From: a virus
Lineage: Duplodnaviria > Caudoviricetes
Direction: 5' to 3' (one strand)
Virus record (IMG/VR): IMGVR_UViG_3300033070_000552
Location: 1-64,000 of that record
Length of the DNA stretch: 64,000 nt
Translations under genes and position numbers: made by a program
In this document: positions 10,960 through 31,272 of the stretch, piece by piece
Numbering within the stretch: position 1 is the first letter of the stretch
Layout of the letters: each line of letters opens with the position of its first letter
Notes under the pieces: generated by a model
The model's input: the letters and a program-made list of their open reading frames with translations, nothing else
Databases searched by the model: none
What the model was told of the DNA's origin: nothing

Positions 10960-11124
10960 GGTTGGTCTCCCTGTCGGGTTGATATCCCTGCGATATCGAG
11001 GTGGCGATCGTTCAGGAGACGTTCCCGCGAGGTCGATCCTCCAAAAACAAAACTCCCCGCGACAGGGAGTCACGGGGAGCCGGAGCCCGGTATGGACGAC
11101 GAATCACATCCCGAGCAGTAAACC

Positions 11125-27093: not shown

Positions 27094-27647
27094 GCTAGAC
27101 GTTCCCGCGAGAGATTAATCAAAGCCCCGGTGATCCGATCGCACGCGACGTAGACGTACCGCTCGCGAACGCGCCCAAACATAGCCATGCCCTTGATCAC
27201 GTCGCCGCATTTGATTCGCTCCCACCTGATCGTCAGCGTGAGTTTGAGCGTGTCGGCGTCGGGCACGACCTCCCACACGTTGTCGTGGCCGCCCACTGTG
27301 CCCGGGGGTAGCGGCCTAACAATCGCCCGCACGTCGCCGGACCTCTCGCCGTTTGCGGAGTAAATGTACGTCCCGGGCTTGGGCGGCTTGGACTTGAAGC
27401 TGGGGAGGTTGGACGATGGGTCGCGGTGGATCTCGTCGCTCGACTCGGGCGCGTCGAACTGCTTGCCGCACTTGTCGCAGACGTAGATCGGGAACTGCTC
27501 GCCCGGCACGCCCGAGGCGACAGCGACGATGTTCCCGGCGTAGACCTTGCCATCGCGGGATGGTTTCTTGTACGAGCCCCCGGCCATGTCGCACGGGTCG
27601 ATCTTGTGGTGCCCGTAAACGGTCGGCGACTTCGCGGGCTGGCTCAC
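27090..27647 (-). CDS. hypothetical protein with CxxC zinc ribbon
   Basis: YVCDKCGKQF; GTG 27647 overlaps the exonuclease stop. Confidence 0.5.
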   Translation of the reverse strand: MSQPAKSPTVYGHHKIDPCDMAGGSYKKPSRDGKVYAGNIVAVASGVPGEQFPIYVCDKCGKQFDAPESSDEIHRDPSSNLPSFKSKPPKPGTYIYSANGERSGDVRAIVRPLPPGTVGGHDNVWEVVPDADTLKLTLTIRWERIKCGDVIKGMAMFGRVRERYVYVACDRITGALINLSRERLA

Positions 27648-28699
27648 ACAAACCCCATCGGTCTGAGCACGGTCTCGCACGTCTCGGCGGCGAACCCGTA
27701 GGTGCCCCGAAGCACGCGGGTGGCGTTCGCGAACGAGATCCGACGCTGGCAGTTGGCGATAGTGCCGACGATCGTTCGAGCGGCGGCGCTGGCGGCGGTT
27801 CCGCCCGACCACGCGGCGAGATCCATCTGCGAACGGCAAATTCGCGAGAGCGTGAACGAGAGGTTCGCGGCCTCGACGTTATTGGCAAGAGCCACGTCGA
27901 CCGCGTAGGGCTTGGGCTTGGTGATCCGATCGCGGGCGTAGTCGATCGCGGCCATAAGCGAGCCGTGGGCCCCGATATAGGCCGACGCGGTTTTCTCGCC
28001 GAACTTGGGGACGCCGGGGATATTGTCGCCGGTGGCGGGCTCGCCCACCAACGCTTTCCAGTCGACGTACCGATCGGGCGTGAACGGGAATTGAGAGGCG
28101 AACTCCTCGGGGCCGACGAGCTTCTTAGAGACACCTCGCCACACCGAGACGTTGGGGCCGACGAGTTGATAGAAGTCCTTGTCGTCGGAGACGATGATCG
28201 TTCGCGATGTCATGTTCGCGAGGGCCGTGCCGATCAGATCGTCGGCCTCGAACTGGTTGTGATAGACCTCGGGGAGCCCCAGGTGTTTCACGCCCTTGAT
28301 CGCGACCTCCATCGCGGCCTTGGTGCGCAGGGCCTCGGCGATCTCGTCGTCGGTCTTGGCGGCGTCCTGCCTGAGCTTGTACCCGGGGTGGACCTTCCGC
28401 TTGTTCTCGACGCCGCCGTCCCAAAAGAGCACGAATCGGTTGGTCCGAAAGATCGAGCAGCACGTCGCGACGATCTCAAGGAACCCGTGCAGGCCCCGCG
28501 TGTCCTCGCCGGTGGGGGAGGTAAGGCCGTCGCGGGTGTGGATCGCCCGGTAGACCGCATGGCGGGCGTCGAAGAACAGGGTCGTCTCGTTGACCGGCCA
28601 CTCGGCGGTCTTGAGCTTGATCTCGCGGAAAGGGTCCTCGGCCTCGGGGAGGTGAACCTCGCCGAAGTCAACCTGGCGGGACGATGCGGTCTGGGTCAT
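27644..28699 (-). CDS. 5'-3' exonuclease / flap endonuclease (Pol I N-terminal, T5-like)
   Basis: LFFDAR, LFWDGG, PGYK, FEADDLIG, IVSDDKDFYQL, ALVGEPATGDNIPGVPKFGEKTA. Confidence 0.92.
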   Translation of the reverse strand: MTQTASSRQVDFGEVHLPEAEDPFREIKLKTAEWPVNETTLFFDARHAVYRAIHTRDGLTSPTGEDTRGLHGFLEIVATCCSIFRTNRFVLFWDGGVENKRKVHPGYKLRQDAAKTDDEIAEALRTKAAMEVAIKGVKHLGLPEVYHNQFEADDLIGTALANMTSRTIIVSDDKDFYQLVGPNVSVWRGVSKKLVGPEEFASQFPFTPDRYVDWKALVGEPATGDNIPGVPKFGEKTASAYIGAHGSLMAAIDYARDRITKPKPYAVDVALANNVEAANLSFTLSRICRSQMDLAAWSGGTAASAAARTIVGTIANCQRRISFANATRVLRGTYGFAAETCETVLRPMGFV

Positions 28700-28787
28700 G
28701 GGCTGGCCTCGCTGGATATTTCATGGTGAAATAAAGGGGATGGTTTCGGGCTCCGGTCGATATCGCAGGGGTGTCGGGGTGGACTTG

Positions 28788-29135
28788 AATGGAAGGCGGG
28801 CGGTGACGACCCGCCGTGGGTTGGTGCTCCTTCGATCCGGCATCCGGGAATCGAACCCTTCTTCCATCACGATATCTACGCGCCACACGGGTGGTAATTT
28901 CGATTCGGCCACCCGCCTTCAATGGTCCCCGATCACCCGTCGATGATCGAGCCCCAACAGTCCTCCGCGTCGGCGAACCGGCGCTACGTCTTGTTCCTGT
29001 CCCCGAAACTACGACCTCGGTTATCTATCACGGGCTCGCCTGATTGCTCGGTGAGCTTGCGCGACACTTGACGAGATCCAGACGTTTCACCCTCGGGGTT
29101 GGCGGGGTGGGGGCTTTGCGGACCCCTCTGGACTG
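28788..29135 (-). ncRNA. putative structured non-coding RNA(s) downstream of the tRNAs
   Basis: No credible ORF; closing helix CAGTCC(29135-29130)/GGACTG(28963-28958); GCAA and UUCG tetraloop hairpins; second domain closed by GAAGGCGGG/CCCGCCTTC; begins 4 nt after a GGGAACGTCT motif. Confidence 0.55.
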
Positions 29136-29164
29136 CGATAGACGTTCCCGCGAGCGGCGATCCC

Positions 29165-29200
29165 AAAAATGAAAGAATGCCCGGGGGAGGCCCTGGGCAT
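29165..29200 (-). terminator. intrinsic terminator after the tRNA pair
   Basis: ATGCCCAGGG-CCTC-CCCCGGGCAT hairpin followed by TCTTTCATTTTT. Confidence 0.7.
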
Positions 29201-29243
29201 TAAAGATCGGCTTTGAATCCGCCGACAGGAGTTGGTGCTGTAA

Positions 29244-29315
29244 TTGCGGGGCTTGGATTCGAACCAAGGACCATCGGATTATGAGACCGATATTCTGCCG
29301 CTGAACTACCCCGCA
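29244..29315 (-). tRNA. tRNA-Met (CAT), initiator-like body
   Basis: TGCGGGG acceptor stem, anticodon loop CTCATAA, T arm CTTGG-TTCGAAT-CCAAG, A discriminator; CCA not encoded. Confidence 0.88.
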
Positions 29316-29316
29316 A

Positions 29317-29390
29317 TGCGAAGGGGAGGACTCGAACTTCCGGCCTTCGGGCTTTTACACCCGACGCTCTACCAACTGAGCTACCTTCGC
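29317..29390 (-). tRNA. tRNA with atypical 8-nt anticodon loop (identity undetermined)
   Basis: GCGAAGG/CCTTCGC acceptor, GCTC-AGTTGGTA-GAGC D arm, TCGGG-TGTAAAAG-CCCGA anticodon arm, GGAAG-TTCGAGT-CCTCC T arm. Confidence 0.8.
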
Positions 29391-29472
29391 ACAAAGACCC
29401 GGATCGACAATGTGGTTTTCGAGACTTCAATAACCGTGTAGTCCCGCGAGGCATTCGATCCGAGACGCCAGA

Positions 29473-29500
29473 ATAATACCCGGGAATTCGGGCGAGTCTA
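29473..29500 (-). promoter_or_regulatory. sigma70-like promoter for the tRNA pair
   Basis: TAGACT-N16-TATTAT about 80 nt upstream of the first tRNA. Confidence 0.5.
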
Positions 29501-29511
29501 GTTTGGCTGAA

Positions 29512-31272
29512 TCACTTCGACCTCAGGAACGCCCGCACCGCCCCAAGATCCACCGGGGCCGAGTCGAGTTCGTCGACCGAATCCTCCCCGTAAACCTGAT
29601 CGGAGAGGTCCCGTTTCTTTTGCACGAGCCCCAAGAAATACCGATCGATCGGCGCGTACGCGAACCCCTCGGCGACGTACGAGATTACCAGCACCGACTT
29701 GGCCTTCTGGCCGATGCGGGCAACGCGACCCACCCGCTGCCTGAGCTTGGCGTGGTTCCACGGAAGGTCGAGGTTCACGACGACCGATGCGTCCTGGAGG
29801 TTGAGCCCACGAGCCATCGCCTCGGTGCCAATGAGGATTCGGCCAAGCCCGCCCGGGGAGCAGAACCTTCGACGGATGTCGTCCCGCTGGGCCATCGACA
29901 CGCCGCCGTGGATCATGTACGGCCGGAACTTCGAGAGGCGGATCGCCGCGAACACCGCACACTGGCGGTACTTGGTGAAGATCAAGACCCGCTGGCTCGA
30001 TATCTCGCCGTCGAGCAGCTCGATCAGATCGTCGAGTTTGGCCGACTCGGACTTAGGGTTGGTGAGATCGGCGGCAAGGGCCGCTCGCTCGACGGCGGCG
30101 AGCCGGGCGAGCCCGACGGCCCCGGTCTCGTCGTTGGTAACGAACCCGTCGGCGGAAGCCTTGTAGGCGATCCGCTGGGCCTTGCCCGCCGTGACGCTAC
30201 GAACCTCGGAGACGACCCGGGGTATCTCCGACCCTACGTCCTCGTGCCGACGCCCAAACCAGCTCCCGGCCAATCGTAGTCGAAGCTCGGGCATGTTCCG
30301 CGTACCTATCTCGGTTCCGAACTTGGGGTGGAGGTCGAGGTACCGGGTGGAGAAGCAGTCGAATGACCCTAGCACCGGCTCGTCGACGACCGACATCTGA
30401 CCGAAGGTATCCGAGAGCTTGTTCTCGATGGGGGTGGCGTTGGTGGCGATCACGAACGAGAGCCCGCGACAAAGAGCCCGAGCCCGGCGGGTGGTCATCG
30501 ATTCGTGGTTGGCGAACGCCGACGACTCGTCAAGGATCGCGCCGACGGAGCGGGCGAACAGTGCCTCGATCGGCTTGGCGTATTGGGGAAGTCTGAGCAT
30601 CTGATGGTGGATCACGTAGACCGTCGCGCCGGGCCTGAGGCGATAGAGGCGTTTATCCTTGTCGCCCGAGACGGCGGAAACTAATCCCGGAGCATCGAGG
30701 GCGAGCACGAAGCGTCGAAGCTCGTCGTACCACTGGCCGACGACCGACGGCGACGACGAAACGATAATCGGCTTGGAGGCCGAGCACAACCCCTCCTCGA
30801 TCATGCGGGCGATGATTCCGCAGGCTTGAGGCGTCTTGCCCAGACCCACGTCGTCCTTGAGAATCTGCCCGCGAGAGGTGCGGTTGGGGTCGATCACCCG
30901 AGACCAAAGCCGATCCATCCCCGCGAGCTGGTACTGACGTGGCTTGTACTCGGGCGAGAGCAGGGACGCCCACGGATAGTCGGTGGTCCGCTTGGTGATC
31001 GCGAGCTTGTCGGCGGTGAGCTTGGCCTCGGTAAGCCATCGACGAACGCGGGCCTTGGTTCGATCGTCGGCGAATCCCGCAAAGCCGGGGAACTGCATGA
31101 GGATCGGCACGGCGGTGATCGAGAACGCCGCGTCCTCTCCGGGCACGCACCACGCGTCGGTCCACGGGAGGTACGTCTCGTTGATCGCGTTTTGGGTATC
31201 GGGGGCGGAGTCTTTGAGCACGACCATATTGAGCCGTCGGGCGCGGGGGTCGGCGGGGAGGGCGATCTTCAC
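29512..31272 (-). CDS. SNF2/SWI2-family helicase
   Basis: YQLAG, LKDDVGLGKT, ILDESS, NATPIENKL, LIFTKY, GLNLQDAS, DLPWN...QRVGRVARIGQ. Confidence 0.92.
   Translation of the reverse strand: MKIALPADPRARRLNMVVLKDSAPDTQNAINETYLPWTDAWCVPGEDAAFSITAVPILMQFPGFAGFADDRTKARVRRWLTEAKLTADKLAITKRTTDYPWASLLSPEYKPRQYQLAGMDRLWSRVIDPNRTSRGQILKDDVGLGKTPQACGIIARMIEEGLCSASKPIIVSSSPSVVGQWYDELRRFVLALDAPGLVSAVSGDKDKRLYRLRPGATVYVIHHQMLRLPQYAKPIEALFARSVGAILDESSAFANHESMTTRRARALCRGLSFVIATNATPIENKLSDTFGQMSVVDEPVLGSFDCFSTRYLDLHPKFGTEIGTRNMPELRLRLAGSWFGRRHEDVGSEIPRVVSEVRSVTAGKAQRIAYKASADGFVTNDETGAVGLARLAAVERAALAADLTNPKSESAKLDDLIELLDGEISSQRVLIFTKYRQCAVFAAIRLSKFRPYMIHGGVSMAQRDDIRRRFCSPGGLGRILIGTEAMARGLNLQDASVVVNLDLPWNHAKLRQRVGRVARIGQKAKSVLVISYVAEGFAYAPIDRYFLGLVQKKRDLSDQVYGEDSVDELDSAPVDLGAVRAFLRSK

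Follow-up and report, generated by a model that had tools for sequence, protein, structure and literature searches.

In this study we describe a candidate structured RNA of about 180 nucleotides (nt) encoded by a phage, the IMG/VR virus record IMGVR_UViG_3300033070_000552. The window, that is, the whole stretch of 64,000 nt that was analysed, is the first 64 kb of this 88,798-nt record, which CheckV rates as complete, which has 62-67% G+C and which carries nearly all of its genes on the minus strand. The candidate lies on that strand at 29136-28958, within an 810-nt gap without coding signal inside the replication block. We found that this stretch is non-coding, that its predicted fold is exceptionally well defined, that it has been kept as a unit in a relative whose flanking sequences are different, and that it stands directly behind a promoter-like motif used throughout the genome. 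As to its role, the reading that we tentatively prefer is that of an orphan structured RNA which forms the 5' module of the transcript of a FEN-type 5'-3' exonuclease gene and acts in cis as a structured leader.

Positions in the RNA are counted here as 29136 minus the coordinate in the window. The structural elements listed by a first-pass annotation of this DNA could all be located on the minus strand: the candidate begins 4 nt past GGGAACGTCT (29149-29140), the strands of a closing helix are present as CAGUCC (29135-29130) and GGACUG (28963-28958), GAAACGUCUGG occupies positions 48-58, CAAGACGU lies within ACAGGAACAAGACGUA at positions 136-151, and CUCG (61-64), CGAG (86-89) followed by CAA, GCAA (76-79), UAGAUAA (109-115), the CCGAGG..UUUCGG hairpin and a UUCG hairpin (152-169) are there as well. 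Two statements about their pairing have to be corrected. The proposed long-range pseudoknot between ACGUCU (51-56) and AGACGU (145-150) is, in the ViennaRNA prediction, a helix nested in the closing helix and enclosing others, namely GAUCUCG/CGAGGUC (58-64/117-123) and an inner hairpin; and the hairpin described as capped by GCAA, although these letters exist, comes to merely 2-3 pairs. All elements fit one nested secondary structure, a four-way junction closed by CAGUCC/GGACUG, and in a larger fold the closing helix reaches G29136. The ACGUCU/AGACGU helix carries 8 of the 10 bases of the GGGAACGTCT promoter motif.

The minimum free energy (MFE) of the fold on the minus strand is -70.7 kcal/mol (z = -2.68), a value equalled by 2 of 200 shuffles; the plus strand reaches -71.8 kcal/mol with z = -1.38 and an MFE frequency of 0.05. 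Energy alone is weak evidence here, because a z-score of -2.68 or lower was also obtained for 3 of 142 windows of 178 nt taken arbitrarily from this strand of the genome. Within the folding model, the well-definedness of the structure is the stronger evidence: MFE structure and centroid coincide, the MFE structure accounts for 17.6% of the ensemble (frequency 0.176) and the ensemble diversity is 9.4, compared with shuffle medians of 0.006 and 38. None of 150 shuffles reached the values of the candidate, and among 150 random genome windows none matched its MFE frequency and one its diversity. The fold of the module is unchanged when it is placed inside a 360-nt context.

No coding signal was detected in any frame across 28700-29500, none of the ten open reading frames (ORFs) that overlap the candidate is on record, two word searches found no relative, and a HMMER search of 1.84 billion representatives returned a single low-complexity match and nothing else. 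The stretch 28958-29136 is thus non-coding, and a small protein gene, either the 60-codon frame at 29166-28984 or a shorter internal frame, is a very improbable alternative. It is true that the 60-codon frame is open across most of the element and that its G+C content at third codon positions (GC3) climbs to 0.77-0.79 near 29060-28881. Over its full length, however, GC3 is 0.66 against 0.75-0.9 in the genes, its TTG start would fall in the tail of a terminator, upstream of the promoter motif, and its product is of low complexity and without relatives. In a relative from activated sludge the indels inside this frame sum to +2 and the substitutions lack a 3-nt periodicity.

This relative, the sole diverged homologue compared, consists of two activated-sludge contigs (runs X4 and X5) in two variants, which were aligned to the window. 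Its FEN is 88% identical (94% for the FEN DNA). Upstream of FEN it aligns over exactly 28961-29238, which comprises the terminator, the motif and the candidate. The segment 28684-28960, with the FEN start, a palindrome and a region behind the candidate that we call domain 2, is swapped for 71 other letters, and 29239-29300, most of a tRNA-Met gene, for 161 other letters. Since the flanks were replaced and 28961-29238 was kept, we regard the candidate as a conserved unit whose 3' boundary is the end of conservation. Changes are distributed very unevenly along it (Table 1). For the 57-nt 3' part about 7 changes would be expected under neutrality and 2 were observed, and the AGACGU strand of the long-range helix is unchanged. 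The variable hairpin (80-86/96-102) is heavily diverged, and its pairing is kept in both variants, as rebuilt by script: C83-G99 became U-A, the A84.C98 mismatch became G-C, C81-G101 became G-C via a 2-nt insertion, and the 9-nt loop was retained.

Searches with the FEN alignment and with the SNF2 helicase gave one useful relative, L009/L123, which is 54% identical; there helicase and FEN genes are adjacent, without tRNAs and without the element, and the 55-kb record (G001) holds no copy of it anywhere. As the 54% relative lacks a copy in its whole record, the element appears confined to a narrow lineage. Viral contigs searched with FEN alone gave no relative, metagenome contigs gave relatives at 32% identity or less and none closer, and runs X2 and X3 contain near-identical pieces only. 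In cellular genome contigs the best FEN-clade matches (about 30% identity) belong to metagenome-assembled genomes of Planctomycetota (L119, L120), which by sequence likeness is a faint hint at most of the host. Exact-pattern scans from the conserved 3' part had no match in viral contigs or genome contigs, a 16-base pattern from the 5' end had 7 chance matches without further similarity, and blastn against GenBank phages matched tRNAs only. The FEN relatives P0002-P0008 are 56-90% identical. In one of them, P0004 (385 amino acids, 81% identical), the chain is interrupted by 34 additional residues that include two CxxC pairs (CPVCKGG...CGTCGD), which looks like a zinc ribbon inserted in the exonuclease. 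The junction of helicase and FEN genes is also a hot spot of gene content, with the promoter motif alone at 3940-4000 of L009.

The motif in front of the candidate gives it a transcriptional context. The genome has 22 exact copies of GGGAACGTCT, every one of them on the minus strand and as a rule with RC in front; in the window alone there are 21 matches at up to one mismatch where 7.4 are expected. An ATG follows 3-5 nt downstream in 14 copies, and other copies precede leaders of 25-60 nt with a Shine-Dalgarno sequence, for example at 11026, where the order of terminator and motif seen at the candidate locus is repeated. The motif is also used in the 54%-identity relative L009 and in L109; in L009 a distance of 37 nt separates it from the start of FEN, and no RNA element lies between. 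We conclude from this distribution that RC-GGGAACGTCT is probably a phage-specific promoter class serving many leaderless mRNAs. The phage encodes a protein with sigma-70 region 4 (51542-50808). By analogy with the cgcATG copies of the motif, transcription of the candidate is predicted to start at G29136, where the closing helix also begins. The first-pass annotation had also offered, as one possibility, a new RNA class encoded right behind tRNA genes. This survives in so far as the candidate is non-coding, predicted to fold autonomously, preceded by a promoter-like motif, conserved and near tRNA genes; 'right behind' needs qualification, as a terminator-like hairpin and the candidate's own promoter-like motif intervene.

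Its principal proposal was a minimal ribozyme or decoy of the RNase P type, reduced to a catalytic domain that lacks the specificity domain, and the likeness is easily seen. The candidate is close in size to RNase P RNA of type T (208 model positions), has a terminal helix, lies near tRNA genes and presents landmarks in a similar order: GAAA before the long-range helix, an ACAG-A-rich strand, ACAGGAAC, before the partner strand, and UAGAUAA. This order is superficial. We scanned 1401 nt and 216 nt around the locus with all 4227 families of Rfam 15 at E <= 10, and no RNase P family (RF00010, RF00011, RF00373, RF02357) appeared, in either scan. Across the whole phage RF00010 (RNaseP_bact_a) had no match, and RF02357 (RNaseP-T, without specificity domain) had one of 6.7 bits, elsewhere and not at the locus; since 8 of 14 control genomes were positive, the RF02357 search was not blind. 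The topology differs as well. As the first-pass annotation had itself cautioned, the P4-like helix is a continuous 6 bp without the bulged U and there is no P2, and because there is no P2 this helix is nested and the P2/P4 pseudoknot is missing. Moreover, the regions that look alike vary between close relatives: ACAGGAAC ('CR-V-like') is changed to GCAGGACC in the activated-sludge relative, these being the only two changes in an otherwise invariant 3' part of 57 nt, UAGAUAA ('CR-IV') is altered there, and both CAA and GCAA are lost. An RnpA gene (PF00825) is absent from the 88.8-kb phage, in a search whose control was positive in 10 of 14 genomes, although a host RnpA could still serve and a protein gene alongside would support membership without defining it. 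Our literature search turned up no report of a phage-encoded RNase P RNA. The element is not an RNase P RNA; we see no reason to think that it works like one, and a derived ribozyme or decoy of this kind is scarcely credible. The useful negative is that the notion of a minimal RNase P carried by a phage has to be given up.

Other known families fare no better. The 6S, riboswitch, ribozyme and leader models of Rfam 15 have no match, and the only Rfam matches to the candidate are at chance level (PyrR208 with 15.3 bits, CRISPR-DR10 with 11.8 bits, KCNQ1OT1 with 10 bits). The second of these concerned hairpin B, which we rejected as a CRISPR repeat at E 7.8. No tmRNA was found by ARAGORN or among Rfam families at E <= 10. 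The sole YrlA match (21.5 bits against a cut-off of 69) falls on the true tRNAs and not on the candidate, and the phage has no TROVE-domain (Rsr) gene. GOLLD and ROOL gave no match at E <= 10 over 28300-29700, and the conserved block measures 278 nt where the criterion is >500 nt. Domain 2 does not fold significantly (z = -0.74) and has no counterpart in the relative. Its ends, GGGGCUC... and ...GAGCACCA, cannot pair as a 7-bp acceptor stem; in its 3' part it shares about 53% identity with the 3' half of tRNA-Met plus trailer, and no tRNA or tmRNA model matches it. Judged by this similarity, domain 2 is probably what decay has left of a tRNA 3' half plus trailer and not part of the element; a tmRNA or tRNA mimic was rejected in view of the insignificant fold, the absence from the relative and this simpler explanation.

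The candidate has no Rfam family; it is of a known general kind, the structured RNAs and leaders that phages carry beside tRNA genes. The phage RNAs ROOL and GOLLD are 'often near tRNA islands', and a Met-tRNA is found upstream of one GOLLD (bioRxiv 10.1101/2024.12.08.627333). Like them the candidate is phage-encoded, non-coding, of complex predicted fold and next to tRNA genes (just downstream of tRNA-Met); unlike them it is about 180 nt long instead of roughly 600-800 nt and was seen in one narrow phage lineage. Phage T4 offers further parallels. Its tRNA cluster also encodes species 1 and 2 (rnaC and rnaD), which are small stable RNAs other than tRNAs; they share a transcript with the tRNAs and are released by processing of the tRNA precursor, whereas the candidate follows a terminator and has a promoter-like motif of its own. 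The T4 gene 32 pseudoknot and the gene 43 operator are structured autoregulatory 5' leaders of about 20-40 nt whose binding proteins are known. A structured RNA at the 5' end of the message of a replication gene is a plausible mode for the candidate too, but the candidate is 180 nt long with a four-way junction and has no known ligand.

How might such an RNA act in cis? According to the preferred reading, 29136-28958 would encode a non-coding module of about 180 nt that is discrete and folds autonomously, transcribed from the phage-specific promoter RC-GGGAACGTCT, which elsewhere would drive mRNAs that are leaderless or have short leaders. Its 5' end at G29136 would be the first base of the terminal helix, pairing with the 3' end of the module and closing a four-way junction made up of two C-rich hairpins, a long arm that bears the variable hairpin, and the UUCG hairpin. 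The module would form the 5' part of the transcript that carries the FEN exonuclease gene of the replication block; a fully paired 5' end would protect the FEN message, and the conserved 3' half would be the binding site of a factor, from phage or host, by which FEN translation or stability is set, in a mode analogous to the autoregulatory leaders of T4 genes 32 and 43. We lean towards this cis role because the orthologous promoter in L009 serves FEN directly, because the module of the activated-sludge relative ends about 60 nt before the FEN start (by arithmetic from the alignment), and because no terminator directly follows the module.

Several observations count against this interpretation. 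In the present phage 260 nt separate the module from FEN, and they contain domain 2, a weak terminator-like hairpin that ends in a U-rich tail (28812-28790), and a regulatory motif in the form of a palindrome; FEN may therefore be controlled on its own, and the RNA may constitute a unit apart. The ends of the folded window were picked by eye to take in the closing helix, which flatters the fold statistics. Substitution positions are listed for 19 of the 32 changes, the other 13 all lying in the 5' 76 nt and the promoter region, so that the comparison of pairs stops short of the closing helix, of hairpins A and B and of the 5' side of the long-range helices; the alignment of the relative also gives out 3 nt into the closing helix. 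Predicted pairing is weakened at three substituted positions: among them, A142C disrupts U128-A142, and G118C disrupts either C63-G118 of the MFE structure or the G118-C131 pair of the first-pass annotation, barring a partner change that is not listed. Finally, part of the conservation operates at the DNA level, since the conserved block also contains the terminator and the promoter.

If the RNA is indeed a separate unit, it might be a stable small RNA of the tRNA island, comparable to other tRNA-adjacent phage RNAs, which acts in trans, is transcribed from its own promoter and is trimmed to a helix-closed core of 180 nt, binding a protein or an RNA, for example as an anti-defence or host-takeover decoy. 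This is a possible though somewhat doubtful alternative, and we put the cis role slightly ahead of it. The site between tRNA genes and a probable tRNA remnant, the promoter-like motif after a terminator, and the paired ends together with the exceptionally well-defined fold, as in stable RNAs, all suit it, and so do the U-tailed hairpin and the separate palindrome before FEN and the ROOL/GOLLD precedent near tRNA islands (bioRxiv 10.1101/2024.12.08.627333). It is weakened by the lack of a terminator or known processing signal after the module, by the proximity to FEN in the relative and the direct service of FEN by the L009 promoter, and by the lack of a known partner, with Rsr/TROVE and RnpA genes absent from the phage. 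More ambitiously, the candidate could be the founding member of a new class of phage structured RNAs acting in trans, which we consider quite unlikely. In one version the long-range helix would display 8 of the 10 bases of GGGAACGTCT as double-stranded RNA and titrate a sigma-like factor or motif-binding protein, as a sequence-specific cousin of 6S RNA and a timing switch between gene classes. The analogy is based on a similar length (about 180 nt), paired termini and the base-paired copy of the promoter motif, but 6S RNA is a rod with a central bubble, and the candidate is a multi-branched junction without a 6S match in Rfam. In another version it would be an anti-defence decoy that travels with phage tRNAs.

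There might also be no RNA function at all. The block could be conserved as DNA, for its terminator, promoter, a possible second promoter-like AAACGTCT and protein-binding sites, or it could be a recently shared spacer, the neat fold then arising incidentally from GC-rich inverted repeats and from window ends picked by eye. The terminator and promoter motif inside the conserved block speak for this, as do the fair folding of the plus strand, the roughly 2% of arbitrary genome windows that equal the energy z-score, the absence of the element from the 54%-identity relative and the substitutions that break predicted pairs. Yet the best-kept part is the 3' 57 nt, which lies far from the promoter and exceeds the FEN third codon positions in conservation, the hypervariable hairpin has preserved its pairing through compensatory changes, neither shuffles nor, essentially, genome windows match the well-definedness, in which the minus strand surpasses the plus strand, and the base at which transcription is predicted to start is also the first of the closing helix. 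On balance we regard a purely DNA-level explanation as rather unlikely.

Table 1. Features of the candidate RNA and its surroundings. Coordinates refer to the window; RNA positions are counted as defined in the text.
Feature	Coordinates	Strand	RNA positions	Basis or remark
SNF2-type helicase	31272-29512	minus		Neighbour of the gap
Sigma-70-like promoter match TAGACT-16-TATTAT	29473..29500	minus		5' of both tRNA genes; consensus scan, consensus match alone
tRNA gene with 8-nt anticodon loop UGUAAAAG	29317..29390	minus		ARAGORN; Rfam tRNA 60.1 bits; retained in activated-sludge relative
tRNA-Met (CAT)	29244..29315	minus		ARAGORN; Rfam 66.1 bits
Terminator-like hairpin AAUGCCCAGGG/CCCGGGCAUU, then CUUUCAUUUUU (U-run)	29165..29201	minus		Inverted repeat I6; closes tRNA unit
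Promoter-like motif RC-GGGAACGTCT	29140..29151 (GGGAACGTCT itself 29149-29140)	minus		Predicted start about 4 nt downstream, G29136
Candidate RNA (domain 1)	28958..29136	minus		About 179 nt, four-way junction, terminal helix; folds and conserved block
Closing helix CAGUCC/GGACUG	29130..29135 with 28958-28963	minus	1-6/173-178	Fold
Hairpin A, GGGGU-CCGCAAA-GCCCC	29110..29126	minus	10-26	Fold
Hairpin B, CACCCCG-CCAACCC-CGAGGGUG	29088..29109	minus	27-48	Fold
Long-range helix ACGUCU/AGACGU ('P4' of first-pass annotation)	29080..29085 with 28986-28991	minus	51-56/145-150	Fold
Variable hairpin	29034..29056	minus	80-102	Pairing kept in relative
Hairpin			127-143	Fold
UUCG-capped hairpin GCGCCGG-UUCG-CCGACGC	28967..28984	minus	152-169	No change in relative
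5' 76 nt, motif and terminator (179 nt)	29060-29238			13 substitutions
Middle part (42 nt)			77-118	17 substitutions and indels
3' part (57 nt)			119-175	2 substitutions
Domain 2: T-loop-like GGGUUCGAUUCCC, GAGCACCA, GGCGGG..CCGCCC hairpin	28788..28957	minus		Outside conserved element
Palindrome TATTTCACCATGAAATA	28715..28733	.		Copy of second genome-wide motif; 15 nt before FEN start
FEN-type 5'-3' exonuclease gene	27644..28699	minus		Pfam 5_3_exonuc_N and 5_3_exonuc; next gene downstream, same strand
FEN third codon positions				16/128 differ (about 13%; hand count)
DnaE-type polymerase	26860-23459			Replication block

Farther along the replication block follow genes for a DnaB-like helicase and a DNA methyltransferase. 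The tRNA gene with the 8-nt anticodon loop is otherwise canonical, and ARAGORN cannot name its anticodon. In the activated-sludge relative the region of this tRNA (29301-29469) can be aligned with 21 changes; a 461-nt replacement is found around the tRNAs there besides the 161-nt one. A complementarity between the 3' end of the candidate RNA and the T-arm of the odd tRNA, at 12 of 14 positions (I3), was judged to be at chance level across the 870-nt region and dismissed.

Copies of GGGAACGTCT are found, for example, at window positions 427, 3230, 7152, 20093, 27106, 31997, 32809, 34801 and 51557. The genome also has about 35 sites of a second motif, the 7-3-7 palindrome TATTTCA-CCA-TGAAATA(AA/TC), mostly just upstream of gene starts (for example window 14260, 20138, 28731, 33726, 34835, 38891 and 43383) and sometimes in tandem with GGGAACGTCT; such a placement suggests either an operator or another class of promoter. 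In three places on the minus strand (window 12647 and 18248, genome 86285) the palindrome is followed by a longer repeat, each copy of which has TGGACAT-N16-TGTATCAT, a good sigma-70-like -35/-10 pair, and a CCGATA..TATCGG hairpin. By this resemblance the three copies are candidates for early promoters of the host polymerase. The strongest-folding of the 178-nt windows sampled lie outside the window, at genome 87909-88086 (z -6.0) and 88443-88620 (z -4.9) in L118; they contain perfect GC-rich hairpins such as GGGGTTCGCGAGGTGTCGTCC/GGACGACACCTCGCGAA and CCGAGGGTTGATG/CATCAACCCTCGG, apparently within an ORF near the end of the record, and have no Rfam match.

In conclusion, if the candidate is real it would add one more orphan structured RNA to the few tRNA-adjacent non-coding RNAs of phages. 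Its practical value would be modest, as it belongs to one narrow lineage. That lineage, a group of uncultured high-GC phages, seems to have organised its transcription around two genome-wide motifs.

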